From positions 19,282,001 through 19,346,000 of the forward strand of contig OX597823.1 in assembly GCA_951406725.2 (NCBI GenBank): a stretch of 64,000 nt of DNA, given 5' to 3'. This stretch comes from Octopus vulgaris (lineage: Eukaryota). Each line of letters begins with the position of its first letter. Within the stretch, counting starts at the first letter, position 1. A program made the translations under genes and the position numbers. The notes under the pieces are model-generated. The model saw nothing but the letters and a program-made list of their open reading frames with translations. It ran no database searches and was not told the DNA's origin. This document shows, piece after piece, positions 1,123 through 56,102 of the stretch.

Positions 1123-1234
1123 TGTTCTAACAGAACATCTACATTTAGTGGGGATAAATATTATCTCTCGGTATTAATAGGTTACGGAGAGGGTCATAGC
1201 CCAACTAATTAGAGAGAGAGTTAGTTTAGATGAG

Positions 1235-2572
1235 ATGCAGTTTGGGTTCGTGCCAGGGAAAAGTACCACTGATGCTATATTCCTGGTAAGGCAGCTGCAG
1301 GAGAAATACCTAGCCAAAGATAAGCACCTGTACCTGGCTTTCGTTGACATGGAGAAAGCTTTTGATAGGGTCCCCCGATCCCTTATCTGGTGGTCAATGA
1401 GGAAACTAGGGATAGATGAATGGCTGGTGAGGACTGTGCAAGCCATGTACAGAGATGCCGTAAGTAAGGTTAGGGTTGGCAACATGTACACAGAAGAATT
1501 CAAAGTAGAGGTTGGGGTCCACCAGGGTTCAGTACTCAGCCCCCTCCTATTTATCATAGTACTCCAGGCAATTACGGAGGAATTCAAGACAGGCTGTCCC
1601 TGGGAGCTCCTCTACGCTGACGACCTTGCTCTTATTGCTGAGTCACTATCAGAACTGGAGGAGAAGTTCCAGGTGTGGAAGGAGGGTTTAGAATCAAGGG
1701 GCCTTAGAGTCAACCTAGCTAAAACCAAAGTACTAATAAGTAGAAAGGTAGACAATCCACAAATATCTTCAGGAAGATGGCCCTGCTCGATCTGTAGAAA
1801 AGGTGTAGGTAGAAACTCTATAAGATGTACCCAGTGTAAGCTATGGACACATAAGAGGTGCAGCAATGTCAAAGGTAGGCTAACTGGGAAGATAGTTTTT
1901 GTATGTGGCAGATGCTCGGGAGCATTAACCTCCGAAAATCTGCAGAAAACAACTTCCGTCACTTTCCAGGGGGAAAAACTAGAAGTAGTTGATAGCTTCC
2001 GTTATCTAGGTGACCAAGTCAGTAGTGGGGGTGGGTGCGCTGAAAGTGTAACTGCTAGAATAAGAATAGCCTGGGCAAAGTTTAGGGAGCTCTTACCTCT
2101 GCTGGTGACTAAAGGCCTCTCGCTCAGAGTAAAAGGCAGACTGTATGATGCGTGTGTACGAACAGCCATGCTACATGGCAGCGAAACATGGGCCGTGACT
2201 GCTGAGGACGTGCGTAAGCTCATGAGGAATGAAGCCAGTATGCTCCGATGGATGTGTAATGTCAGTGTACATACTCGACAGAGCGTTAGCACCTTGAGAG
2301 AAATGTTGTACCTAAGAAGCATCAGTTGTGGTGTGCAAGAGAGACGATTGCGCTGGTATGGTCATGTGGCGAGAATGGATGAAGATAGGTGTGTGAGAAA
2401 GTGCCAATCCCTAGCAGTTGAGGGAACCCGTGGAAGAGGTAGACCCAGGAAAACCTGGGACGAGGTGGTGGTGAAGCACGACCTTCGAACTTTAGGCCTC
2501 ACTGAGGAAATGACCAGAGACCGAGACCTTTGGAAATATTCTGTACGTGAGAAGACCAGGCAGGACAAGTGA
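1235..2572 (+). CDS. RTE LINE reverse transcriptase (truncated ORF) with an internal C4HC3 finger
   Basis: QFGF, FVDMEKAFD, GVHQGSVLSP, YADD, FRYLG and RGRPRKTW motifs. The frame continues upstream to the truncation at about 1180. Confidence 0.95.
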   Translation: MQFGFVPGKSTTDAIFLVRQLQEKYLAKDKHLYLAFVDMEKAFDRVPRSLIWWSMRKLGIDEWLVRTVQAMYRDAVSKVRVGNMYTEEFKVEVGVHQGSVLSPLLFIIVLQAITEEFKTGCPWELLYADDLALIAESLSELEEKFQVWKEGLESRGLRVNLAKTKVLISRKVDNPQISSGRWPCSICRKGVGRNSIRCTQCKLWTHKRCSNVKGRLTGKIVFVCGRCSGALTSENLQKTTSVTFQGEKLEVVDSFRYLGDQVSSGGGCAESVTARIRIAWAKFRELLPLLVTKGLSLRVKGRLYDACVRTAMLHGSETWAVTAEDVRKLMRNEASMLRWMCNVSVHTRQSVSTLREMLYLRSISCGVQERRLRWYGHVARMDEDRCVRKCQSLAVEGTRGRGRPRKTWDEVVVKHDLRTLGLTEEMTRDRDLWKYSVREKTRQDK

Positions 2573-8293: not shown

Positions 8294-8425
8294 ATTCATC
8301 AGAAGGAAGGAGGATTTCCAGCACATGTGCCACACTCAGATGAATTGCCACCAGAACCTGAAATAATTGAAGTTGTGTTTGAGAAAGTGAAAGGCAGTAT
8401 AGGACTAAGTATTGTAGCTGCTAAG
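8294..8425 (+). CDS. AFDN: Afadin/AF-6/canoe exon: pre-PDZ linker and PDZ betaA-betaB (IHQKEGG...PEPEIIEVVFEKVKGSIGLSIVAAK). Upstream exons lie outside the window.
   Basis: ctttcag acceptor, AAG|gtgaat donor, 132 nt, phase 0/0. Matches the afadin PDZ start PEIITVTLKKQNGMGLSIVAAK. Confidence 0.95.
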
Positions 8426-9846: not shown

Positions 9847-10333
9847 GTGTTGGACAAAATGCCTTTTTGATATTTGCCCTGCTTCTGTACATTCTGTGTT
9901 CAAATCCTGCTGAGCTCAACTTTGTTTTTCATTCTTATAGAGATGTTAAAATAAAATACCAGTCATGTACTGGTGTTGATGCTGCCAACTGTCTCCTTCC
10001 CACAAATTCCTGACCTTGAGGACATACATATATAAAATCCTTGTTTATTGATCTAACACCCCACTGTTATCATCCTGGTATTAACTTCACTCTCCTTTGT
10101 TAAATGCCTTGTTTGTAAATACCCTGTTAACTTAACCTTTTGTTAAATACCCCATGTTAACTCCCTGTTATTAACCCTGTTCTTCTTGTTAACCCTCGCC
10201 TTGTTGTTAATCACCTCTCTCCACTGTTAACATTCCCTGCTTTTTGTTATCCTTCCCTCTGTTGTTATCCCACCAGTTTCTAAAACCGCCTAAACCCTAT
10301 CATTATCAACAGCCACGTTTTCTCATTGTGTAG

Positions 10334-10363
10334 ATTACTATAGTGGACAGCCATGGTCGTACG
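10334..10363 (+). CDS. AFDN: Candidate alternative 30-nt microexon A of afadin (ITIVDSHGRT) in the PDZ betaB-betaC loop
   Basis: ttttctcattgtgtag acceptor, ACG|gtaagt donor, 10 open codons in phase 0 matching the flanking exons. Paralogous copy at 18261. Confidence 0.6.
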
Positions 10364-11007
10364 GTAAGTAAGCGTGAAATGACCAAGCCATTGGTCTCAC
10401 ACTCTGTGTGTCCGATGACTATTTACGACTGTGTTGTCTCTCTCTCTCTCTCTCCCTCTCTCTCTTTGCCTGGTCATGTTATGACAAATGTATATTGGTC
10501 TTGATTTAATATCATGGTCACTTCACGGTCACCTTACCTCAATATTTGAGGAAATGCTGGATCACTTATTCACTTATGCATGGTTTCATGTACGTATGTG
10601 ACACAAATGCAAACACACACACATATTTACACAATTGTATGCACTCGTACACAACCTGCACAGAAGACACATGCATATCTACACTCACACACACACACAA
10701 ACACATATATATATAATGTTGTAACGTGCCAGTAGACTATTTGTTGTAAGCTTTTGAAAATTTCTCCTTCTTTCGCTCACTGACTTTTAGATTTCTTCAG
10801 ATCTGTAGATCTAGTGTTAACTCTACTCTATATACCACCGCCTATCTTCAGTTTGTATCAAGTACAAAACAAGTGTAATTTATACTCTATATTCTGCTGT
10901 CTGTTCCTCTCTTCAGCTGTGTTGCTAATTCAGCTTCATAAACCAGCAAAATTTTAAGGGATACTGTTAGAAAGTAGTCCAAAATAAATGAAAATATTGC
11001 TAAATGG

Positions 11008-11596
11008 ACATTATTTACATTTGACGGATATTTGTCCTCACCTTGTTTGTTGTTAACACAACTTTTCAGCTGATATCCTCTCTAAACATCATGAACCTGG
11101 GTTCTCATTCCTAAGGTATTTTTCGATGCTGTTATTATTCAGGTCACTGCCTGGAATCGAACTCGGAATCTTGGGGTTAGTAGCCCGCACTTTTAACCAC
11201 TACGCCATATGCCCGTAGGCAATTATAAAGTGAATTTTAGGGCTTATAAATCTAATATTTTTCTATCCTTCCTTAATACCGGTTCCCATATGCTACTCAT
11301 ATCTGCATTAGGTCTGCTTAGGAGGTTATTATGTCCTAGCATATGTGCTGCTTCTTTTGGTTTTTGTATTTTCCAGTTTGATTCCAGACAGTGACCGGAA
11401 TAATAATAATAATAATAATAGTAATATTGAAAAATACCTTAGGAATGAGAACCCAGGTTTGAAATTTCCCCAAGACACCTGATGAAGGCTGGAGAGTATA
11501 TCAACCGAAATGTTAGGTTAACAACAAACAAGATGAGGACAAATATCTGTCAAATGTAAATGTACATAATTCCTTGTCTCTTAAATATAGAACTGT
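11008..11596 (-). mobile_element. Penelope-like element 3' fragment with an inverted terminal-repeat copy, a tRNA-like segment and hammerhead-like motifs
   Basis: 11244-11396(-) reads ESNWKIQKPKEAAHMLGHNNLLSRPNADMSSIWEPVL, typical of the C-terminus of Penelope GIY-YIG ORFs. 11008-11160 is inversely repeated at 11378-11565. CTGATGA...GAAA at about 11479-11509. Confidence 0.7.
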
Positions 11597-12639
11597 ATGT
11601 AGAATTGTTTGTCATATTCACATAAATATACTGTTGAAAGTGTAGAAACTATGACACTCATCTTGAGGAATCATCTTGTATCAATGTATTAGTAGCAGAT
11701 GAAAAATGTCTGGCAGCAGTTATGGAATTGCTGAATATGTATTTCTGCGTCTATGAGTATCATCAACAGCAAGCATTGACAAACACCACATACCAAGATA
11801 AATTTAGTCTCTACTTGATAAGAAAAAAAAAAAAAGACTTGAGAGATATCCTAGAAGAAAAATAAACTTTTATTTTTTAAAATTATTTTTTCACATTCAG
11901 CACTTGTGTCAATTAGAGAATGGAAGGTTTAAAATACATTCTCAGTTAAGAACAATTTCTTAAGTCTTCATCTCTCCACCCTAAGTAAAAATATAAGAAT
12001 TTTATTTTATGCAGTTTCATATCAGCTGCAAAGCATGAAGGAATTAATAAATTTTCCTAAATGATCAATGCTATCAAAATCTGCATGACAAGCTTACAAA
12101 CACTGATTTTATTATTTTCCTACTATTTTAGTTGATAGTGTGTTGCAAATTTAAGTTTACTATTGGTACCTTGTGTTTCACTAAAGAAGCATGCTTTGTT
12201 AAATCAGATTTCTGAGCTCATCTTTCAACATCACTTTCTTTACAAAATACTTTATTGCTATCATACTTTCTTTCTCTCTCACTGAGTTTGAAAATTGTAG
12301 ATTGGTTAAGCGCGACTTTTGAAGCATTTTAGTCACTTGAATAATTGAAATTTAGTTTGTTCAGACTTTTATCACAATGAAATGCCATCATCAACTCCAG
12401 ATTCCTTTGAATTTAGTACATCAGGGAGCTTAATGATAGCTCAATATGTTAGAAGTAACAGCCAAATATTCCTCAATTTACACCGTAATCTTAAAGAGGA
12501 ATACATGGAAAAAAAGTCACTCCACTGTCTTTAAAAAGTGTATATTAGCACAAATATAAATTTATAACTGATTTCCTGTCACACTATCTTATTCTATCCT
12601 TAGAGTAAACTGTTACTAAACAGATCTAATCATAAAATA

Positions 12640-13030
12640 GGCGCAGGAGTGGCTGTGTGGTAAGTAGCTTGCTAACCAACCACATGGTTCCGGGTTCAGT
12701 CCCACTGCATGGCATCTTGGGCAAGTGTCTTCTGCTATAACCCCAGGCCGACCAATGCCTTGTGAGTGGATTTGGTAGACGGAAACTGAAAGAAGCCTGT
12801 CGTATATATATGTGTTTGTGTGTCTGTGTTTGTCCCCCTAGCATTGCTTGACAACCGAAGCTGGTGTGTTTACGTCCCCGTCACTTAGTGGTTCGGCAAA
12901 AGTGACCGATAGAATAAGTACTGGGCTTACAAAGAATAAGTCCCAGGGTCGATTTGCTCAACTAAAGGCGGTGCTCCAGCATGGCCGCAGTCAAATGACT
13001 GAAACAAGTAAAAGAGTAAAGAGTAAGAGT
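12640..13030 (+). mobile_element. SINE family A
   Basis: Homologous to 4805-5219. Confidence 0.88.
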
Positions 13031-13475
13031 ATACCTGCCCACGAAGATTTCAATTCCAAATTCAATAATGCCATTTGGAATGATTGAAACCAGATGTCAA
13101 AATTAATTTTAAGAAATATTGAAATTTTACATTGAATTTCTGAAAATGATGTTTAAAAATGGTACTGCGAATGTGTAATTTTTGATTGAGCTGGAAGAAT
13201 TTATTTAGGACAGTTGATATAAGTGATAGTCCTGTATGAGTTATTGTATGATGTAATCAATGCTAACTGATCAATACTTCTGTGAATTTCAAATGGGAAA
13301 TAAAAGTTTGAAGAATTTCACATTACTAGATCTTTATTTATTCATTGTTTCCTTGAGCTGTATTGATGAATTACAGTTCAGATATAATTCCACAGTAATT
13401 ACACTCACCTGTGATATATTTTTTCAAGGTTGTGTGTTTATAATACAATATCAACCAAAGTAAGAGAGACTATGG

Positions 13476-13672
13476 CAGTGGTTTTCAACCAAGGTTCCTC
13501 GGAACCTTAGGGTTCCACAAGAAGTTACAAAACTGCTAAAATCGGCAGTAATTTTTAATTCTCCTGTGCAGATATGTGTGCATAAGACTATTAAATTATT
13601 GCACAGGGGTTCCTCGAGCGAGTGGAATGTTTCCTTGGGGTTCCGCTCCAGCAAAATGTTTGAAAAGCACTG
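13476..13672. mobile_element. hAT-type MITE (same family as 36831-37034)
   Basis: Same TIRs, 8-bp TSD GACTATGG. Confidence 0.9.
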
Positions 13673-13687
13673 GACTATGGTATTTAA

Positions 13688-13908
13688 CCCTTTCGTTACC
13701 AACTCAGCTGAAACCGGCTCTGGCTCTGTAGTACAAATGTCTTGTTTTCATAAGTTTTGAATTAAAATCTTTCACCAAACCTTAGTCACAATTTAGGTTC
13801 CTAACACTAGCTGAATGATAACTAAGTTATTTTACTAAATTCTTTGTTATATTTTAAGTAATTGAAAGAAATACAGAGCATCTCAAAATAAATACAGTAA
13901 CGAAAGGG
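13688..13908. mobile_element. TTAA-flanked (piggyBac-type) MITE
   Basis: TTAA|CCCTTTCGTTAC...GTAACGAAAGGG|TTAA. Confidence 0.88.
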
Positions 13909-14533
13909 TTAATTAGTCGACAAATTTTACTTGTCAGCTAAAAATTTCATATAAATGAATGTTGGAATAGAAAACTAAACTGTGTTACCCACAAAATTTT
14001 CAAGTTATGCAACCCCCCCCCCCCCAAAAAAAAACAACAAAAAACAGCATAATCCAATACTTGTAGCCCAATCTGATAACCATAGTCTTCAGTTAGTACC
14101 AACTCTAGAATTAACGTAAGCTATATACAGCTGTTGTCTACTCCTGTCTAATTACTAGTTTTGGCACCACTGCTTGGCTATAATTAAAGTATCAGGTCTT
14201 TGATTAATGGTTTTGTACGTGGCTAATCTAATATAGCCATAGAAACTCTCTCTGTTTATCTCTCTCTCTCTCTCTCTCTCTTTTACTCTGTCTCTCTCTC
14301 TATCTCTCTCTCTGAATGAGTTTCTTCTTGGCATTCTCCTTGCCTGCCTCCCTCTGACTTGCCTTCCTTCTATCCTTATCATTCTCTCCCTACTTTTTCA
14401 CTTCCACTCTTTGTCTCTCTCTCCCTTCTACCTATTCTCTTACCTCTGTCTCTTACACTCACTCATTCCTGAACTCAGAACTCCCTAAGTACTAAGCAGA
14501 AAAAGAAAAGAAAAAACAAAAAAAAAGAACAGA

Positions 14534-14745
14534 CAATGGCCCAGTGGTTAGGGCAGCGGACTTGCGGTCGGAGGATCGCGGTTTCGATTCCCAGACCGGG
14601 CGTTGTGTGTGTTTATTGAGCGAAAACACCTAAAAGCTCCACGAGGCTCCGGCAGGGGATGGTGGTGATCCCTGCTGTACTCTTTCACCACTCTAAAAGG
14701 CGGTGCTCCAGCATGGCTGCAGTCAAATGACTGAAACAAGTACAA
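14534..14745 (+). mobile_element. Chimeric SINE: family B head joined to the family A 3' end
   Basis: B head to about 14692, then aaaggcggtgctccagcatgg...gaaacaagta. Confidence 0.8.
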
Positions 14746-15395
14746 AAAAAAAAAAAAAAATACAATGACATGTTCCTTTCAAATTAGTCATCTGTTTCCT
14801 GTATTAGTATACCACACCATTGCACCTATGCCTATAGCTGTTACTTTGCTACTTCACAATCATTAAATCTCAATCCTTCACTCTTGTTACTCCATTTTCA
14901 CTAACATTTTAATCCTTGATAATAAACAACCACATTCTGGCCACTTCAGTGATTAATATTGTGCTGGTGCTCCAGCCTGGTCAGGAACATCACAGTAATC
15001 TAAAATGATTAATGAAGGCCTCCAGTTTTCATCTATTCGACTTGATCCTCACTAACCTCACCCATATCAGTTGTGGGTTGCATGCAACCTGCAGGACTTT
15101 CTGTGTGGCCTGCTGAACGAAAACCTTTTTTTAGTAATGTGGTTTGCTTTATGGTAAGCTTTGTCTCATGTGGGCCCACTTCATGGAAAAGGTTGCCCCA
15201 AAATGAGAAACCTGTTATTTCAACAACACATTGAGTCAGATGTAATTTAATAAGGCCTCATTGAGGTAAATGTCATTAACTATATTATTATTCTACTTGT
15301 CATATGTGTTCGAGTGTTACACCTTGAACAACCTTCACTATGGAACTGAATTCTTAACCTGATAAAATATGAAAGTCTGTAAAGTGATGCTTTAA

Positions 15396-15918
15396 CCCTT
15401 TAGCATTTAAACCACCCATATCTGGCCAAATATTCTACTTATTTTACGTTCAAACCAGCCAGATCCAGCCTCTTACACCTACCCTATCATGTCATTCCAA
15501 AAAAAATACTTTACTTACAGTGAGCCACCACATAGTGTGCTATCAGTGATTGAAATAGCATAAGAGAGACAATCTCTTTGATCAGTTCGAGGTGTCACCT
15601 GCCTGGTGTCTGTGACCAAAGAGGAGACAACTGCTCCGAAATGCTGACATTTCAGTAGGTGGTGCTGTGAACTGATCTAGGTGTATCCACACCATTTGTC
15701 AGCAGCAAGAAATTTTCTGTATGCCAAAACACAGTGAATAGCTTGTTCTTCAGTTTGAATGTACCTCAAGCATATTTGCACTGGTAAATAACATTGCATT
15801 AAAAAAAAATATTATCACATCATTGAAATTTTAAAGCTGCAAGGTAATGCGTGATGAATTCAAAGCAATGTAAATGAATATGCCTTACATTTGACAGAAT
15901 AATCTGAACGCTAAAGGG
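15396..15918. mobile_element. TTAA-flanked MITE, second family
   Basis: TTAA|CCCTTTAGC...GCTAAAGGG|TTAA. Confidence 0.78.
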
Positions 15919-15946
15919 TTAAAATTGAAATAGCAACAATTATTAA

Positions 15947-16432
15947 TCATCATCGTTTAATGTCTGCTTTCCATGCTAGCATGGGTTGGATGATTTTGAC
16001 TGAAGGCTGGCCAACCAGATGGCTGCACCAGGCCCCAGTCTGGCAGATTTTCTACAGTTGGATGCCCTTTCTAATACCAACCACTCCGAGAGTAGTGGGT
16101 GCTTTTTACGTACCACCGGCACGGGGGCCAGTCAGGCGGTACTGGCAATGACCTCACTCGAATCTTTTTACAGGTGCCAGTGAAGTGACGTTGGTAACGA
16201 TCACGCTCGAATGGTGCCTTTTTACGTGCCATGGGTACGGAGGCCAGTTGGCTGCTCTGGCAACGATCATGCTTGGATGGTGTTCTTGGCACCCTACTAG
16301 CACAGGCATAAGTGCCAGTAAGGCGACGCTGGTAACAATCATACTCGAATAGCTGCTCTGTCAACGATCACACTTGTATGGTGCTCTTTGCACCCCGCTA
16401 GCATGGATGCCAGTCATCGAAATGATTTTGAT
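15947..16432 (-). mobile_element. RTE 3' UTR/tail copy
   Basis: Reverse complement of the shared 3' end. Confidence 0.85.
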
Positions 16433-16665
16433 TTAATCATGTAAATATTAAAGAAATTCAGCTGTCTGGTGCTTAAGCCATTTGATACCGGTCCATGTGA
16501 GATTGCTCCTGGTTCTGTTGTACAAACATCTTGTTTGAAAAGAACCTCAATCAAAACCTTCCATCAAAATTCTGTTTTGCGTGTCAAACACCAGCTTAAT
16601 AACAGACAACATTATTTTACTAAATTCTCCATTATTTTAAAAATAAATGGAAACGAGGGTAGTGT

Positions 16666-17096
16666 ATCATCATCATTTAATGTCCGCTTTCCATGCTAGC
16701 ATGGGTTGGACGATTTGACTGAGGTCTGGCGAATCAGACTCCAGTCTGATCTGGCAGAGTTTCTACAGCTTGATGCCCTTCCTAACGCCAACCACTCCGA
16801 GAGTGTAGTGGGTGCTTTTACGTGCCAGTTTGGTGGTACTGGCAACGGCCACGTCCAAATAGTGCTTTTTACGTGCCACCTGCACAGGAGCCAGTCCAGC
16901 AGCACTGGCGACGTCCTCGCTCGAATGTTTCACGTGCCACTAGCACGAGTGCTAGTAATGATCATGCTCGAACGGTGTGCTTAACGTGCCACCGGCACGA
17001 AGGCAGGTTTGTTGCTCTGGCAACGTTCTCACTCGTATGGTACTCTTAGCGCTCCACTAGCAACGGATGTCAGTCACCAAGTTTGATTTCGACTTC
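16666..17096 (-). mobile_element. RTE 3' UTR/tail copy nested in a degenerate TTAA-type MITE (about 16484-17130)
   Basis: Shared tail; the flanks resemble the MITE at 13688-13908. Confidence 0.8.
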
Positions 17097-17204
17097 AAAT
17101 CAACAGAAATTTGGTGGTGAAAGGGTTAAACAATCTGCTGTGCCTTGACGATAGCAACGATTAAAGTGTGCTATATGGTTGGTGGGTTGTTTTTCTTTCT
17201 CTAG

Positions 17205-17310
17205 AGTGTAAGGCTAACAGAGAAAATTACGGATATTTTATTACGACAGAGATAATAAAAAAAACAGTTTGCTAAGTAATAATGATGCTAGGACACAGAT
17301 CTCCATCACG
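17205..17310 (+). other. Candidate cassette exon: 106 nt with a premature stop from acceptor 17205, or 90 nt in frame from acceptor 17221 (RKLRIFYYDRDNKKNSLLSNNDARTQISIT)
   Basis: ttttctttctctag ends at 17204, a second cag ends at 17220, ACG|gtgagt donor at 17311. Non-repetitive island between transposons. Confidence 0.35.
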
Positions 17311-17410
17311 GTGAGTCTTCTGTCTCTGTTATTACCTAGCACGCTCTTTTTTATCGTCTCTAACTATTGCAACGTAGTGTAATCAGTGGCAACACTGTTT
17401 TATTGTAACC

Positions 17411-17650
17411 TATTTCTTTATTACCCACAAAGGGCTAAACATAGAGGGGACAAACAAGGACAGACATAGGTATTAAGTCGATTACATCGACCCCAGTGCG
17501 TAACTGGTACTTTAATTTATCGACCCCGAAAGGATGAAAGGCAAAGTCGACCTCGGCGGAATTTGAACTCAGAACGTAACGGCAGACGAAATACCGCAAA
17601 GCATTTCGCCCGGCGTGCTAACGTTTCTGCCAGCTCGCCACCTTTTATAA
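17411..17650 (-). mobile_element. SINE family C (MetaSINE-like core)
   Basis: gcctttcatcctttcggggtcgataaattaaagtaccag core. 20-bp TSD AACACTGTTTTATTGTAACC at 17391-17410 and 17651-17670. Confidence 0.88.
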
Positions 17651-18260
17651 AACACTGTTTTATTGTAACCGTTTTACTACATCTTTCACTGTCTTGTGTT
17701 AGTACTGACTGTAGACTTCACCTTTCATTGTGCTTCATTTTTAATATATTTAAATATTTTCTTTCTTCTCTCCAATAAAATCTCTACACCAAGTAGAAAA
17801 AGAAAATATTTTGAAATTTCTTTGTCAAACTCACTATTCCTCACATACATTCACTTTCATTGTTATAATTTCACGCATAGACATATATTTGATGTTAAAC
17901 CCCTGTTTAATGACTTAATTTTCCCTTTTTGTTAATCACCACCCCTGCATTGTTAAATGTATCCTATTTTCAACCACCACCCTTGAATATACCCTGTTAA
18001 CACCTTCTCTATTAACCTGTTCCTCCCTCGTTAACCTCCTTCCCATCCTTCGTGTTTAACCATGTCCTGCTAACAACCTTGTGTTTTTTAACCATTTCTT
18101 ATATTGTTAATGCTATATTGTTTAACTTTTACCCCTGCTCATGTTAACCCAACCCTATAGCTGATGTTCACCTCTGTTAATACCTACAATTGTTAACCCT
18201 CAGTTTCTAAAACCTTTCAAACCCTGTTGTTATCAATAGTCACATTTTCTCATTGTGTAG

Positions 18261-18290
18261 ATTACTATAGTGGACAGCCATGGTCGTGTG
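18261..18290 (+). CDS. AFDN: Candidate alternative 30-nt microexon B of afadin (ITIVDSHGRV)
   Basis: ttttctcattgtgtag acceptor, GTG|gtaagt donor, phase 0, 28/30 nt identical to microexon A. Confidence 0.6.
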
Positions 18291-18949
18291 GTAAGTAAGC
18301 GTGAAATGACCAAGCCATTGGTCTCGCACTCTGTGTGTCTGGTGACTATTTACGACTGTGTTGTGTCTCTCTCTCTCTCTCTGCCTGTTCATGTTATGAC
18401 AAACGTATATTGGTCTTGATTTAATGTCATGGTCACTTCAGGGTCACCTTACCTCAATATTTGAGGAAATGGTGAATCATTTATTCACTGATGCATGGTT
18501 TCATGTATAACACAGGTGCATACACACTGTGTGATTTTATATACATATATGCACACACACATACATTAATATGCATGTGTATATGTGTATATGTATGATG
18601 AATGCAAAATGTTCATATATATATATACACAAATATTCACACACATATATACACACATGTGCACATATACATGTGCATATATTGTATAAGTAGCATGTTG
18701 TTATGAAATTGTACCTATTGGCTATTTTGTAGTATAGTTTCTTGTCTCAGTCACTGACTTTGAGTCAATTTTCTTCTGTTAGTACTGTTTGTAGAACTAG
18801 TTTCTAAAATAGTGTAACTCTACTCTATATACAACTGCCTGTCTTCTGTTAGTACCAACTGTAGAATTAGTGTAAACTATACTGTATATGCTACTGCCTG
18901 TCTTCAGATATCACCTGTCAGAACTACTGTAAACTATATATATATATGT

Positions 18950-24163: not shown

Positions 24164-24229
24164 GGTGATGGCCAGATGTCACGAGGAATCTACATCAAGT
24201 CAGTTGTGCCTGGTGGAGCAGCTGCTTTG
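24164..24229 (+). CDS. AFDN: Afadin PDZ exon (GDGQMSRGIYIKSVVPGGAAAL)
   Basis: Polypyrimidine tract plus ttccag, TTG|gtaagt donor, 66 nt, phase 0/0. Matches GAGQDKLGIYVKSVVKGGAAD. Confidence 0.95.
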
Positions 24230-26460: not shown

Positions 26461-26534
26461 GATGGTCGGTTGCAGGCTGGTGACCAGTTACTGGAAGTAG
26501 ATGGTCGAAGTTTAGTGGGTTTAAGCCAAGAGAA
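26461..26534 (+). CDS. AFDN: Afadin PDZ exon (DGRLQAGDQLLEVDGRSLVGLSQE-K)
   Basis: cattgcag acceptor, AA|gtaagt donor, phase 0/2. Near-identical to afadin DGRLAAGDQLLSVDGRSLVGLSQE. Confidence 0.97.
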
Positions 26535-26695
26535 GTAAGTTCTTTTCTCTGTTGATTGACCTTTTTTCTGTTTCTTGTGTTATCTCTGGGATTTTATTGA
26601 TAAAAAAATAACTCAATGCAGTAGTAATAAGTCTTTATTTTTCTACCTTATTAATCTTGCCTTGTGCTGTTAAGATTTGATAGATTTATTTTTAA

Positions 26696-27414: not shown

Positions 27415-27533
27415 AGCTGCTAATTTGATGACAAAAACTGGCCATGTGGTTCGGTTGAAAGTATCGAAACAAGGAGCAATTTACCATGGTCTAGCAACTC
27501 TGCTCAGTCAACCATCACCAGTCATCCCAAGAG
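27415..27533 (+). CDS. AFDN: Afadin PDZ C-terminal exon (AANLMTKTGHVVRLKVSKQGAIYHGLATLLSQPSPVIPR)
   Basis: ttttgtag acceptor, G|gtgagg donor, phase 2/1. Contains the afadin/canoe signature KQGAIYHGLATLLxQPSP. Confidence 0.97.
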
Positions 27534-27815
27534 GTGAGGAAAGAGGTTTCCATTTCAAACCAGTTTACTTGGAGTGGCATGGTTTGGTGTGGTGGTCGTA
27601 TTGATATTGTTTAGTGTGGGTTGATGTTTCTAGCATGGAGTGTTTGGTCTGTGTGCTGCGTGCGCTGTACTTGTGGTGTATTGTTCACTGTTTATACTTT
27701 GACTATGCACTTAATCTTTGAAGCTTAGTGACCTGTTTCTAATGTAAAGTGCCAAGTTGTCATAGAACCATGTTAACATATGAATAATGTAATAAATTTC
27801 TCATTTCTCTCACAG

Positions 27816-28553
27816 CTAACAGTCCCAAGAGGAATGGTCCACCTGGTCCACCTAATGCTTACCCAAATAAGGGTCGCCACAGAAGCGAGGAAAATCTGAA
27901 TGTAAATGGTATGCCTAATGATATGGCTCGACAAACTCCCCTTCATCAAGGTCCATCTCGTGATTTCCGTGATATGCCTCGACAGGGGACTCCTCTGCAA
28001 CAAGGCCCACCTCCAGAAATGGCACGTCATGGACCACCTCATCAAGGGCCACCTCATCAAGGACCACCTCATCAAGGGCCACCTCATCAAGGGCCTCCTC
28101 ATCAAGGGCCTCCTCATCAAGGGCCACCTCATCAAGGGCCACCTCATCAAGGGCCACCTCATCAAGGGCCACCTCATCAAGGGCCTCCTCATCAAGGACC
28201 ACTTTATGAAATGGCTCACTCAGGTATGCCAGTCCAAGGTTCCTCTCGTGAAATGCCTCGCCAGGGTATGCCTCATGACATGGTCCGACCTGGCCCTCCA
28301 CGCCAAGGCTCTCCTCAAACTAGTTCTCCTCGAGAAATGTCTCGCCAAGGGCCACCACAGCCAGGTTCTCCCCGTAACCCGAACCAAGGTTCACCACAGT
28401 ACCAAGGCTCTCCACGGGATATGATTCGTCACCAGGGACCACCTCCACCTGGATATAAAAAGGAATTTCGTGATGGTCCACCTAGAATTCAAGCACATGA
28501 TGTGAGGCCACAATATTATACCCTTGCACCACAGTCTTCTCCTTCCATAAACA
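27816..28553 (+). CDS. AFDN: Afadin exon, Pro/Gln/Gly-rich disordered region with (GPPHQ)11
   Basis: ctctcacag acceptor, A|gtaagt donor, phase 1/1, open throughout (frame of ORF 27911..28567). Confidence 0.9.
28031..28195 (+). repeat. Coding 15-bp tandem repeat, 11 units (GPPHQ)
   Basis: GGRCCWCCTCATCAA x11; units vary only at synonymous positions. Confidence 0.97.
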
Positions 28554-31003
28554 GTAAGTACTGCTAATTTGTTCATTTTACTTTGTCTCTTCTCTTCAGA
28601 AAGCAGGGTCTCCCCCCTCCCCCAACAATAACCAAAATACTAAAATATTCAAACCTAGTATCAGCTGAAGAGAGTTGTATGATTAAGTTTTCTTTGCAAT
28701 TTCTCTTTGTGGCAAGTGTCTTCTATCACTGAGTCGTCTGGCTAACTAAATCCGAATGAGTGAAATTTCATTAGTCGATTGCAGCCGCTTGCTTTCCAGA
28801 CCTCAGTCAAACCATCCAACCCATGCCAGCATGGAAAACAAACATTAAACTATGATGATATTGTGTGGGAGCCTTTTGAATGGACCCATCCTGTACTTCA
28901 GTGATAGACTTAATCTGTTGCTACCTGACATTTGGTTACCTTTAGATTGGTACACGCTCTTGTAAACATTTATATCTGGTCTCCAGTCTGAGAAGAACTG
29001 ATAGAAATGCCTTAGGGACATTGAAGAAAGCTATGAGTATTGCCCTCACATCTCTGATCAAGCCATAGAAAAAATAAAAGAAATAGTTATGGAAGACTGC
29101 ATAAATAGTTGCGTTCAAATAAATATAGTCTTTATTTTTTTAAACCAGTGTCAGAAGCAATACTTATGGCTTTTGTACATTCTCCCAGTCTGGTGAGATT
29201 GATGTGGTTAATGTTCAGTTTGAACGTATGTTGGCCAGTGTTTGTTGAAAGATGTTGGGACACCAACATTCAGGGGTCAATTATATCAGTCTCAGTATTT
29301 AGTATGGTACTCATTTTATTGACTACTATACTCCAACCATCTGAGGCCTGCAGACTTTTATCTTGCAGCCTGCTTGATACTTTCTTGAAGTTTTGTGTTT
29401 AATTTAAAAATTAAAATTGTGTAAAACATCTGTTTCAAAATAAATTAAAAATTTATAAGTAGCAATAAAGCAATAGCTTACAATTTTATAATTTTAAAAC
29501 AAACAAAAAGTATGAAAAGTTCTTGATTCTGTAATTTGGTTATTTGACTATTAGTGCATAAAGTATACAAGCGGCCCTCAAAAAAAATTTCTGTGATTAA
29601 AGTGGCCCACAATGTAATTCAAGTTGGCCAGACCCGCCTTAGAGAATTATTTTTCTCTTGCAAACTTACCATTAAAACATCCACTCTTCCAGGCTATCAA
29701 GGCAGATTTTCTACAGCCACACACCTTTCCTATCTACTAGCCCTTGCCTGTTTCCATGCAAGGTAATATTTTCCATGCCCAAACATGATTTTCATGGAAG
29801 ACTGGAAACAAATAACTTTGCTTTTATGGCAGTGATGCTCATTTGCAACCATCACTTAATGTCTAGACATGAGCAACACACAACCACATACACATGGCAG
29901 GCTTCCGCACAGTTTCCATCCCTCAAATCTACTCACAAGGCTTTCGTTAACCTAGCACTATAATAGAAGACACTTGCGCAAAGGGCTGTTCTGTAAGATT
30001 AAAGCCTTGACATGATTGGGAAGGAAGCTTTTTTAACTACACAGCCACACCAGCGCCTGTCTATACATGTTACATGTCAAATTTCACTCATTAAACTTTG
30101 GTCAACCTGACACTTTGATAGAAGACGTAGTCATACAAGGGATCAAATCCAGAACCACTTAGTTACAAAGTGAACTTTTCAACCCCCAACAGTCATGCCT
30201 GTACCCATTTGTAGACACAATAAAACAAGTGACTATAATAAAGGTGACTCTGCAATAACGTAACTATTTTACAAAAACACAATCTCAGATTAAGTCTTTT
30301 GCCAAACAAAACCAACAAAAGAATTTTTGCATTTCAGTTAATCTGGATTTGTGAGATTATTTTAAGTAAGACTTATTTGATTTGTTTCTGAGAGTAAACT
30401 GTTGGGTTTACTGGTCACCTGATACTGAATTCAAACTTTTGCTTTTGATTTTTTTCCAACATCACTATTATTGAAACCATTGTGTGGTGTTCGTGACCAA
30501 GGTACATATTTTTGCTTGTCTCAGTCTGCCTGACTGACAAATTGGTATTGTTTATGTTTGAATTACAAGCAAATAAGTTCTATCTTTTCTTCACAGTTAA
30601 GAGGTTAATAATGTTGAAAGAGCTGACATCTAGATGTAAAAAGAGTCAATCCTGTAATTTAACAAGCCATTTCACCTGCAGAGAAATTTATGTAAAATTG
30701 GGGGCGTGGGGGGGGGGGGGTAATTTTTTTAAAAAAAAGCTCACATCATTGTTATGCATCTGAATTTGCATGTCTGTTGCATAAATGTTTTTGCTTGGTT
30801 ATGACACAAATTTCCTGAGCAAACAGTTTGACTTTTCTTGCCATTTTTATTTCACTTTGCTGCAATTTATGGAATGTTATTTGAATTTTGTTCTTCTTTA
30901 ATTTTTTTTTTTTATGTTTGTTTGTTTAAAATTTTATATATTGAATCTTTGAAATGAAAAACAAAAACAAAAAAAAAAGAAAAGAAAATGGGGCTTTTTT
31001 CAG

Positions 31004-53834: not shown

Positions 53835-56102
53835 TCATCATCATCATCATCGTTTAACGTCCGCTTTCCGCGCTAGCACGGGTTGGACGGTTTGACCGGG
53901 TCTGGGAAGCCAGGGGCCGCTCCAGGCTCCAGTCTGAATCTGGCAGAGTTTCTACGGCTGGATGCCCTTCCTAACGCCAACCACTCCGTGAGTGGATTGG
54001 GTGCTTTTTACGTGCCACCTGCACAGGGGCCGGAGGGTCCGGCATCGTCACGATCGGTTCGAGCATTTTAACGTGTCAGCGGCACGGGGGCAACAAGGTC
54101 CGGGGTACTTTGGGGATCGGGGTACTTTGGGGATCCAGGGTACTTTGGGGATCCGGGGTACTTAGAATGGGTAGGGGGTATGTGGAATTGCTGCAGAAAG
54201 CAGCCCGGGTCTTTGTAGTCACAGCATATCTCCAGAGATCTCGGTCCTTCGCCATTGCCTCAGTGAGGCCCAATGCTCTGAGGTCATGCTTGACCACCTC
54301 ATCCCATGTCTTCCTGGGTCTACCTCTCCCCCTGATACCTTCAACTGTTTGGGAGTGGCACTTCTTCACACATCTCTCTTCATCCATCCGCAGCACATGA
54401 CCATACCATCGCAAGCGTCGCTCTTGCACACCACATCTGATGCTTCTTATATCCAGCATTTCTCTCAGGATACTTACACTCTGTTTTGCGTGCACACTGA
54501 CACTACACATCCAGCGGATCATGCTAGCTTCATTTCTTTCAAGTCTACGCATGTCTTCTGCAGTCACAGCCCATGTTTCATTACCGTGAAGCATGGCAGT
54601 TCGCACACATGCATCATACAATCTACCTTTCGCTCTGAGGGAGAGGCCTTTTGTTGCCAGTAGGGGTAGGAGCTTTCTGAACTTTGCCCAGGCTATTCGT
54701 ATTCTAGTGGTGATACTCTCTGTGCATCCACCTCCGCTACTAACTTGGTCTCCCAGGTAGCGGAAACTATCAACTACTTCTAGTTTCTCTCCCTGGAGTG
54801 TGATGGAATCTGTTTTCTGAGTGTCTGTTGTGTCTATTGTCCCTGTGCATCTGCCGCACATGAAAGCTATCTTATCTGTTAATTTCCCTTTAATGTTGCT
54901 GCACCTCTTATGTGTCCATAACTTACATTGGGTGCATCTTATGGAGTTTCTACCTGTACCTTTCCTACAGGTTGAGCAGGGCCACCTACCCGAGGGGATG
55001 TGTGTTGCGTACCTCTTGCTGCTTACTAATACTTTGGTCTTTGCTACATTTATTCTAAGGCCCTTTGATTCCAACCCTTGCTTCCACACCCGAAATTTCT
55101 CTTCTAGTTCCGGTAGTGATTCTGCTATGAGAGCTAGGTCATCGGCATAGAGGAGCTCCCAGGGGCATCCCGTTTTGAATTCCTCTGTTATTGCCTGAAG
55201 GACTATGATGAATAAAAGGGGACTGAGGGCTGAGCCCTGGTGCACACCTACTTCTACTCGGAATTCTTCACTATATTCGTTGCCAATCCTAACCTTGCTA
55301 ACAGCCTCTCTGTATAGAGCCTGTACAGCCCTTATTAGCCATTCTTCAATCTCCAGTTTCCGCATCGACCACCAGATAAGGGAACGGGGAACCCTGTCAA
55401 AGGCTTTCTCCAAGTCTACAAAAGCTATGTAGAGGGGTTTATCTTTAGCTAGGTACTTCTCCTGCAGTTGTCGGACCAGGAATATAGCATCAGTGGTGCT
55501 TCTACCTGGTACAAAACCGAACTGCATTTCATCTAAACAAATTCTCTCCCTAATGAGATTGGTTATGACCTTCTCTGAGACCTTCATCACCTGGTCCAAC
55601 AGTTTGATACCTCTGTAGTTATTTCTATCTAGAGCATCACCCTTACCCTTGTAGCAGTTGACTATGGTACTGCTGCACCAGTCATTGTGTATGGCTCCAT
55701 TGTGAACTACCTGGTTTACAATGCGGGTGACTATGGCATGGCCCACATAGCCAGCTGTTTTAAGTATCTCAGCAGTGATTCCTGATAGGCCAGGGGCTTT
55801 GCCTGGTTTCATATCCTTAATTGCCTTATCTACAAGGGAGCTGTCTATTCGGGTAGCTGGTCCCTCTACTGGGTCAACATTTGGCAGGCTCTCCTCCTCC
55901 CATTCATTCTCCTCATTCAGCAGTCTTTCATAATGGCTTCTCCAAGCCTCTTTCTTTTCACTAGTAGTAAAAGCAAGTGCCCCATCATCCATGCGAACAC
56001 ATTTCTCTCCTATAACATCGCTATTTTCTCTGACACACTGTCTGGCAATCCGAAATACTTCAGCTCTTTGATCCTCGCGACGCTGGACATTGGCAAACTT
56101 CT
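53835..56102 (-). mobile_element. 5'-truncated RTE LINE, related subfamily
   Basis: RT ORF on the - strand, same 3' end and (GAT)n tail at about 53835-53851. Confidence 0.93.
54076..55992 (-). CDS. RTE LINE reverse transcriptase with an internal C4HC3 finger; frame open upstream to about 56100
   Basis: KPGKAPG, NYRGIKLL, FVDLEKAFD, GVHQGSALSP and YADD motifs. Confidence 0.95.
   Translation of the reverse strand: MDDGALAFTTSEKKEAWRSHYERLLNEENEWEEESLPNVDPVEGPATRIDSSLVDKAIKDMKPGKAPGLSGITAEILKTAGYVGHAIVTRIVNQVVHNGAIHNDWCSSTIVNCYKGKGDALDRNNYRGIKLLDQVMKVSEKVITNLIRERICLDEMQFGFVPGRSTTDAIFLVRQLQEKYLAKDKPLYIAFVDLEKAFDRVPRSLIWWSMRKLEIEEWLIRAVQALYREAVSKVRIGNEYSEEFRVEVGVHQGSALSPLLFIIVLQAITEEFKTGCPWELLYADDLALIAESLPELEEKFRVWKQGLESKGLRINVAKTKVLVSSKRYATHIPSGRWPCSTCRKGTGRNSIRCTQCKLWTHKRCSNIKGKLTDKIAFMCGRCTGTIDTTDTQKTDSITLQGEKLEVVDSFRYLGDQVSSGGGCTESITTRIRIAWAKFRKLLPLLATKGLSLRAKGRLYDACVRTAMLHGNETWAVTAEDMRRLERNEASMIRWMCSVSVHAKQSVSILREMLDIRSIRCGVQERRLRWYGHVLRMDEERCVKKCHSQTVEGIRGRGRPRKTWDEVVKHDLRALGLTEAMAKDRDLWRYAVTTKTRAAFCSNSTYPLPILSTPDPQSTLDPQSTPIPKVPRTLLPPCR

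Follow-up and report, generated by a model that had tools for sequence, protein, structure and literature searches.

The window, i.e., the whole analysed stretch of 64,000 nucleotides of Octopus vulgaris DNA, carries exons of the gene for afadin, a scaffold protein of cell junctions that couples nectin/echinoid-type adhesion proteins to actin. These exons are 95–100% identical to the O. vulgaris afadin record P0273, and the afadin records P0276, P0158, P0275 and P0285 show the Pfam domain order RA-RA-FHA-DIL-PDZ. The assignment of the gene to afadin in the initial annotation agrees with the RefSeq isoforms of O. sinensis, the domain order and the structure models, and its placement of two microexons in the betaB-betaC loop, at the margin of the peptide-binding PDZ domain, is borne out by the same isoforms and models. 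The relevant exons are as follows:

8294..8425, + strand: afadin exon whose last part encodes PDZ betaA, the carboxylate-binding loop and betaB (...GSIGLSIVAAK), phase-0 donor; matches P0273
10334..10363, + strand: microexon A (ITIVDSHGRT), 30 nt, phase 0/0; from the sequence and six out of seven O. sinensis RefSeq isoforms
18261..18290, + strand: microexon B (ITIVDSHGRV), 30 nt, phase 0/0; in five out of seven O. sinensis RefSeq isoforms, never without A
24164..24229, + strand: afadin exon with the remainder of the betaB-betaC loop and betaC (GDGQMSRGIYIKSVVPGGAAAL), beginning GDGQ; sequence match
26462..26535, + strand: afadin PDZ exon with approximate bounds; tblastn and sequence
27415..27533, + strand: afadin exon closing the PDZ domain, used as query for the representative search; sequence match

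The coordinates, the 30-nt length, the phase and the translations of A and B all proved exact on recheck. Both exons lie in a phase-0 intron between the upstream exon, which ends in GLSIVAAK at 8425, and the downstream exon from 24164. They have canonical splice sites and a length that is a multiple of three, and are open in the phase of the host intron. A and B differ at two out of 30 bases, 28 and 29, both within the last codon, and their borders are alike, with ...ttttctcattgtgtag before the exon and gtaagtaag after it. Of the splice signals initially described, the TAG acceptor and the GTAAGT donor stand, but the pyrimidine tract is only modest (13 out of 20) and both copies have a second AG 23 nt upstream of the acceptor, use of which leads to an in-frame stop. 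The pair is more than a chance occurrence: the intron was scanned for segments of 3–90 nt between YAG and GTRAG that keep the frame, and of the seven candidates, one being the true downstream exon, only A, B and the downstream exon have a GTAAGT donor. Length cut-offs for microexons vary by author (27, 30 or 51 nt), and the 30-nt exons A and B fall within the looser ones and outside the strictest.

The seven RefSeq isoforms of O. sinensis afadin (X1–X7; XP_036361694-8 and XP_029640557-8), which are automated models without description rather than raw reads, splice exactly these ten-residue units independently of the window. Isoforms X1, X2, X4, X6 and X7 contain A and B, X3 contains A and X5 contains neither, i.e., included and skipped forms are both present among the models. 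Skipping, A and A+B from the series initially proposed (skipping, A, B or A+B, for 0, 10 or 20 residues) are found among the models of this species, whereas B alone is found in none of the seven. The occurrence of A and B together in five models rejects a pair of mutually exclusive exons. As the order A-then-B recurs in this second species, the pair is not an assembly duplication. Both exons are already present in the automated O. sinensis annotation; a published description of the octopus afadin PDZ exons was not found. The single O. vulgaris afadin record, three from O. bimaculoides and one from Argonauta have no insert. A search for shorter proteins gave 12 matches, and the insert is absent from the nine inspected over their full length and from every parsable junction among them; octopus afadin itself exceeds 2000 residues.

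A and B are very probably real alternative exons. It is highly improbable that in O. vulgaris they are instead annotation artefacts, an alternative last exon reached by read-through of the donor, or a poison exon that uses the upstream AG. Such readings would fit the O. vulgaris record without the insert, the reading frame that runs without a stop over 56 codons past the acceptor of A and 52 past that of B, the stop that follows from the AG at -23 in both copies, and one unspliced contig that spans copy A. The A+B peptide, however, requires the end of A to be joined to the start of B, a junction absent from the genome, and the GTAAGT donors are strong. Moreover, no truncated isoform occurs among the eight members of the afadin cluster, and neither AATAAA nor ATTAAA lies near the read-through stops (one occurs about 480 nt past that of A, none in the 690 nt past that of B). 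Contigs of four presumed-RNA runs were aligned to the stretch with the upstream exon and both copies; dispersed repeats dominate the matches, and no relevant splice joint appears among those listed. One high-depth contig stops exactly at the donor at 8425, which intron retention in the contig would explain as well. Depth is higher in the bin of copy A, but a CT microsatellite located there confounds this observation.

The similarity between the copies extends beyond the exons:

10262..10618, + strand: duplicated block, copy A (looser similarity over 10021-10917)
18190..18527, + strand: duplicated block, copy B (looser similarity over 17880-18908)

The blocks are 86% identical. A segment around exon A (10240-10460) has two matches in the octopus's own 2.8-Gb genome, where repeat counts are lower bounds, and on this count an exonised transposon or dispersed repeat was rejected. 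The tandem duplication initially claimed is upheld by two related copies 7.9 kb apart; a high-copy dispersed repeat, set beforehand as one refuting outcome, was not found. In segments picked after inspecting the alignment, the copies diverge at 14 out of 236 sites around the exon. The distal flank has 32 differences in 151 sites (Fisher p = 9e-6 against the exon segment), and the part just upstream has 11 in 51 (p = 1e-3). Around 230 nt of intron downstream of the exon are well kept between the copies. Gene conversion between A and B would produce an equal divergence gradient. An intronic structured RNA such as a miRNA or snoRNA was rejected too: none of the 24 Rfam hits with E <= 1 reaches its gathering threshold or overlaps the exons, and none of the six segments folds with unusual stability (z between -1.15 and 0.34).

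Upstream and downstream of the exons, both copies carry candidate splicing elements:

10019..10275, + strand: pyrimidine-rich tract without AG that precedes copy A and contains degenerate TGTTAAC units (seven TTAAC in 320 nt)
17879..18159, + strand: tract without AG that precedes copy B and is rich in TGTTAAC (eight TTAAC in 320 nt)
10577..10582, + strand: TGCATG, 214 nt past exon A; present in both copies
18492..18497, + strand: TGCATG, 202 nt past exon B; present in both copies

A TTAAC count of at least seven per 320 nt occurs in two out of 352 bins, i.e., in the two tracts alone within 113 kb, and the density of either tract was reached in none of 1000 composition-matched simulations. This density is kept in both copies despite poor sequence alignment of the tracts. 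The tract is absent at afadin's other microexon. Genome-wide, the TGTTAAC-array pattern has 369 matches, of which those listed are nearly all minisatellites. Each copy has an AG at -23 and another at -59, and the AG-free zone immediately at the acceptor is about 20 nt; farther up, no AG occurs for 256–280 nt. CTAAY is found upstream of A and B only at -281 and -191, respectively, compared to seven to eight TTAAC. The TGCATG downstream of A and B is an Rbfox-type motif, a hexamer that occurs 24 times in the 64-kb window. UGC does not occur within 93 nt of either acceptor. This trinucleotide near the 3' splice site is a feature of eMIC/SRRM234-dependent neural microexons (10.1101/2021.02.24.432780), yet according to an excerpt of a later study about one quarter of eMIC-dependent exons lack it (10.1101/2024.09.17.613571), so its absence is compatible with A and B belonging to this class.

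Optional inserts at this junction are not confined to octopus. In a sister cephalopod lineage, which groups with the octopods with support of 100/100 and 100/99, two of the eight junction-bearing cluster members listed (transcript-derived) contain a ten-residue insert. Octopus and sister-lineage inserts share one out of ten residues (BLOSUM62 score of -8), their DNA aligns no better than shuffles, and the octopus intron contains no homologue of the sister-lineage insert. Littorina has an optional four-residue insert, and oysters have two extra residues. The inserts in the sister lineage (ten residues) and Littorina (four) are new observations. The standard length is found in 181 of the 206 parsable afadin junctions of a biased sample, and among the proteins examined in that sample, neither vertebrate afadin nor fly Canoe was seen with an insert, as initially claimed. 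The uniqueness implied by the initial annotation is weaker than suggested, given the variation in other molluscs, the precedent of PTP-BL PDZ2 and the existing annotation of both exons.

The unconserved insert sequence and the variation in oysters and Littorina fit a loop that merely tolerates insertions. One possibility is that A and B are spliced but near-neutral, the loop accepting unrelated in-frame additions, and that the duplicate arose recently as a by-product whose similarity gene conversion has maintained. This is rather unlikely but has several observations in its favour: inserts unrelated in sequence and length occupy one junction in octopus, its sister lineage, Littorina and oysters, no insert is present in the records of Argonauta or O. 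bimaculoides, and the PDZ core is unaffected in models. Dedicated and unusual upstream tracts, with a motif density that outlasts their alignment, speak against a neutral addition, as do the well-kept downstream intron and the ten-residue length common to two cephalopod lineages.

AlphaFold models with A or A+B predict that the PDZ fold is kept, with the insert located in the betaB-betaC loop. The core remains intact with pLDDT above 90, and the models match the PDZ structures of afadin and Canoe best. In the presence of A, the two strands betaB and betaC are predicted at low confidence to lengthen into a longer hairpin with its turn at DSHGR, while A+B gives a mostly loose, flexible loop; the insert reaches a pLDDT of 56 as a block for A and 41–56 for A+B, with no aligned row containing it. 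The secondary-structure strings of the models do not suggest that the insert folds back into the groove of its own domain. The protruding extended hairpin of the PDZ+A model may also be taken as a beta-finger. The insert would then add a new binding surface instead of changing the groove, a surface in which I-T-I-V-D, with Thr at -2, Val at 0 and Asp at +1, acts as an internal PDZ ligand that docks another PDZ domain or promotes afadin dimers, and two copies double the motif. Excerpts of PMC2891790 and PMC7094393 describe precedents for internal ligands that carry Val(0)-Asp(+1) (Pals1/Par-6) and for beta-fingers (nNOS), and the latter source, likewise in part, describes long beta2-beta3 loops that mediate Shank1 and GRIP1 PDZ dimers. 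We nevertheless consider this reading improbable: so short a motif is common, the sister-lineage insert lacks it, and in the A model these residues prolong betaB.

Our preferred reading, an optional duplicated exon with regulated inclusion and changed binding, seems likely, though far from assured. One optional 30-nt afadin exon would have been copied by local duplication, giving A and B, and inclusion at the start of the betaB-betaC loop would be additive (none, A, A+B) as in the O. sinensis gene models. From the unusual upstream tract and the conserved downstream intron with TGCATG we infer that inclusion is regulated, probably by tissue. According to the models, the PDZ domain stays folded with the insert, which likely shifts the strength or selectivity of peptide binding in cells that include it. 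The effect would fall on the part of the ligand that precedes the residues in the C-terminal pockets, or on the opening of the groove. The splicing switch initially put forward, for the choice of junction or synapse partners, is a candidate role of the exons. The most likely outcome would be weaker binding to nectin/echinoid-type tails, as with the five-residue insert of PTP-BL PDZ2. A bolder version appears unlikely: coleoids would have placed a ten-residue cassette in this loop twice, or via full sequence turnover, and the duplication in Octopus would have made a 0/10/20 dial, driven by an undescribed splicing element of TGTTAAC arrays rather than the UGC code, that sets the binding of neuronal adhesion partners. 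As for the function at stake, bonds of the afadin PDZ with adhesion-protein tails strengthen under force according to part of 10.1101/2023.09.24.559210. Against the preferred reading counts that the Canoe PDZ of flies is largely dispensable at normal expression, as stated in a section of PMC8590279.

A PDZ insert restricted to cephalopods offers a cheaply testable case of conserved junction and synapse proteins that cephalopods may have diversified through splicing. The two near-identical exons in one intron, apparently used in order (A before B) and preceded by a tract of an unfamiliar motif, form a natural experiment, and the unrelated exon of equal length in the sister lineage raises the question whether selection keeps length or sequence. 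If inclusion is low and untargeted, the pair is an annotation detail only.

Among known systems, the PDZ domains of Afadin/AF-6/Canoe (PDB 3axa, 7mfw, 1t2m, 2ain) share domain and domain order with the octopus protein and are its best sequence and fold matches. Yet the loop is short in these solved structures and in the proteins examined from vertebrates and arthropods, none of which has the octopus insert. Dscam exemplifies mutually exclusive clusters of tandemly duplicated alternative exons. The octopus pair resembles these in the local duplication of an exon plus its flanks, but A and B are additive in five out of seven models, 7.9 kb apart and nearly identical; the octopus duplicate alters the length of the loop, not its sequence. 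With eMIC/SRRM234-dependent neural microexons, A and B share a very short, frame-keeping cassette exon inside an interaction domain, AG-poor upstream sequence with many branch-point-like motifs, and conserved flanking intron. They differ in the lack of UGC within 93 nt, the AG-free zone of only about 20 nt at the acceptor, TTAAC instead of CUAAY, and a strong donor. The closest precedent is PDZ2 of PTP-BL/PTP-BAS (PTPN13), whose splice variant PDZ2as likewise begins its beta2-beta3 (betaB-betaC) loop with an optional insert that keeps the frame, as excerpts of PMC4365404 and PMC7094393 describe. There, the VLFDK insert keeps the fold and cuts association about tenfold (PMC4365404, in part), and extended beta2-beta3 loops make extra contacts with the ligand, as far as its position -7 (PMC7094393, in part). 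In octopus afadin, fold retention is predicted and the loss of binding, measured for PTP-BL, is expected by analogy; gene and sequence differ, and the insert has ten residues, is duplicated and forms a 0/10/20 series. The octopus afadin PDZ exon pair adds a genuine new example, of modest interest, to a type of system already described.

The octopus afadin gene spans more than 150 kb, and its window exon translations are 95–100% identical to the Octopus vulgaris afadin P0273, the lower identities including alignment run-over at exon edges. Afadin proteins carry two RA domains followed by FHA, DIL and PDZ domains, and the best matches of the PDZ domain, by sequence as well as by fold, are the solved afadin and Canoe PDZ structures. 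The region coding for the betaB-betaC loop of this domain is interrupted by an intron of 15,738 nt, from the end of the GLSIVAAK exon (8425) to the start of the GDGQ exon (24164), which holds two paralogous microexons:

10334-10363, forward strand: microexon A (ITIVDSHGRT), 30 nt, open in phase 0, tgtgtag before and gtaagtaag after
18261-18290, forward strand: microexon B (ITIVDSHGRV), 30 nt, open in phase 0, tgtgtag before and gtaagtaag after

The paired segments, their frame, their donors and their position in this intron are as the initial annotation described them from sequence. The surrounding sub-introns measure 1908, 7897 and 5873 nt, and exon bases 28-29 are the sole differences between A and B. 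Both acceptors are moderate (13 of 20 pyrimidines), and each is preceded by additional AGs at -23 and -59. Each microexon lies inside a duplicated block whose two copies are 86% identical over about 350 nt and more loosely similar across approximately 0.9-1.0 kb. The concern that this block might be a high-copy dispersed repeat is not borne out, as a DNA search of the octopus's own genome returned two matches, A and B themselves. Downstream, the reading frame stays open beyond both donors (window 10364-10504 and 18291-18419; 56 and 52 codons counted from the acceptors), a 12-nt microsatellite difference between the two stretches preserves the frame, and no polyadenylation hexamer occurs nearby.

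The afadin cluster of Octopus sinensis comprises seven RefSeq isoforms. In five (X1, X2, X4, X6 and X7) the sequence is SIVAAK-ITIVDSHGRT-ITIVDSHGRV-GDGQ, whereas X3 contains just the first unit and X5 lacks both, a 5:1:1 ratio among automated models that does not measure abundance. The anticipated series of variants with 0, 10 or 20 extra residues is thus represented by none, A and A+B, while the B-only form is absent (0/7). RefSeq models of this kind are normally built from aligned spliced RNA. The exon join required by the A+B peptide does not exist in the genome. An artefact, or a terminal or poison exon, is a very improbable reading of A and B, even though the insert is absent from one O. 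vulgaris record, three full-length O. bimaculoides records and one Argonauta record. Duplication during assembly is ruled out as the source of the pair, since the order A then B recurs in the second species.

A second afadin microexon of 24 nt lies upstream of the window, after the second RA domain (L004:437-460, on G000:C10); it is skipped in O. sinensis X2 and in Argonauta, and has optional 8- and 4-residue counterparts in the sister-lineage cluster, the former with visible similarity, unlike the PDZ inserts. A large exon at window 27815-28558 encodes GPPHQ pentapeptide repeats, whose number is the sole difference among several RefSeq isoforms; these may be alignment artefacts. An AG-free intronic stretch of 1.1 kb directly follows an afadin exon (L006:2475-3564), and an inverted pair of 1.4-kb repeats (window 1179-2544 and 54221-55583; 79% identical) contains a reverse-transcriptase-like reading frame, LINE-like by reading of its translation.

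Among 380 proteins surveyed, the betaB-betaC junction could be parsed in 206: 181 of standard length, 14 with two extra residues, three with four, three with ten and five with 20. Many fish isoforms make this set redundant, and insert-free queries determined its ranking, so that insert-bearing forms are under-sampled. The +2 class consists of oysters, Pinctada and look-alikes, with the two residues present in every oyster and Pinctada record seen. In Littorina saxatilis, P0368, P0369 and P0371 (3/5 records) differ from P0184 and P0370 by four residues, probably through an alternative acceptor. Two of the +10 proteins, P0285 and P0286 from the Logan cluster of P0160, carry TKDPDYDIQK at exactly the octopus insert junction. 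Their full-length ORFs lie on 9-kb contigs, compared with the far longer octopus gene, which suggests spliced transcripts. Six other junction-bearing members among those listed skip the peptide, which occurs in 2/8 proteins and 8/54 contigs (15 of 19 cluster members listed). In a phylogeny of 24 afadin proteins, this and one further Logan cluster come out as sister to octopods (100/100), and are therefore likely squid or cuttlefish. Only one of ten residues is identical to the octopus insert, and the coding match in octopus DNA is no better than for shuffled peptides at any offset; by sequence comparison, these same-length unrelated inserts at one junction point either to convergence or to a full replacement of the sequence with its length retained.

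Several features resemble splicing regulation. With the CT microsatellite excluded, the two copies differ at 14/236 aligned sites across the acceptor, the exon and some 230 nt of the intron that follows, compared with 32/151 in the distal flank (p 9e-6) and 11/51 in the 51 nt above the acceptors (p 1e-3), the segments having been drawn after the alignment was seen; gene conversion would give an identical picture. Upstream of each microexon lies an AG-free tract of 256-280 nt with degenerate TGTTAAC-plus-pyrimidine units. TTAAC, which fits the general branch-point consensus, reaches at least seven per 320 nt in 2/352 bins (window plus 49.5 kb upstream), sliding windows locate both peaks at these tracts, and 0/1000 first-order simulations matched the count of either; the 24-nt microexon has no such tract. 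Alignment between the two tracts is poor, with 23% mismatch and 107 gap columns (14/300 unit-shuffled versions score equally well), so motif density is kept better than sequence. A decayed minisatellite would look alike. Elsewhere in the genome, a 24-nt minisatellite contains TGTTAAC (G000:C1:4248051-4250095). The Rbfox motif TGCATG follows A by 214 nt and B by 202 nt, one inherited event against an expectation of about 0.11 per 300 nt. UGC, described in one study as typical of eMIC-dependent microexons (10.1101/2021.02.24.432780) and in another as not strictly required (10.1101/2024.09.17.613571), does not occur within 93 nt upstream of either acceptor.

The exons themselves are already known in that RefSeq models contain them. 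The pair is real and otherwise undescribed, with a predicted function: no description of these afadin exons was found in the open-access literature searched. The main text of a preprint on tissue-specific splicing in species that include O. bimaculoides mentions neither afadin, canoe nor PDZ, and its supplements may list the exon (10.64898/2026.09.05.749416). Fresh features are the additive duplicate, the same-length unrelated insert in the sister lineage and the TTAAC tract.

AlphaFold2 was run on PDZ+A with an 18-row alignment, none of whose rows has the insert. In the resulting model (mean pLDDT 84), betaB extends across ITIV, the chain reverses at DSHGR and a single long betaC strand leads back, the hairpin tip block scoring 56; with A+B, core blocks exceed 90 and the insert is mostly coil (41-56). 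The modelled insert sits where betaB ends furthest from the carboxylate-binding loop, which in the Canoe-Echinoid structure holds the last ligand residue (PMC8590279). It would be expected to affect upstream residues of the ligand or the dynamics of the groove, and not the terminal pockets. The same paper reports only subtle effects of PDZ deletion in the fly, which caps the likely phenotype. A tolerated, neutral insert is a decidedly less probable reading than the one we favour. It is improbable that the insert forms a new binding surface or an internal PDZ motif (cf. PMC2891790). According to a review, long beta2-beta3 loops can widen ligand recognition or mediate dimers, and splicing within PDZ domains is little reported (PMC7094393). 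We lean towards a regulated cassette: inclusion of A or A+B would lengthen the betaB-betaC loop and retune, most likely weaken, binding of adhesion-protein tails. The closest precedent is found in PTP-BL PDZ2: splicing in five residues where the same loop begins leaves the domain as stable as before and reduces association roughly tenfold (PMC4365404).
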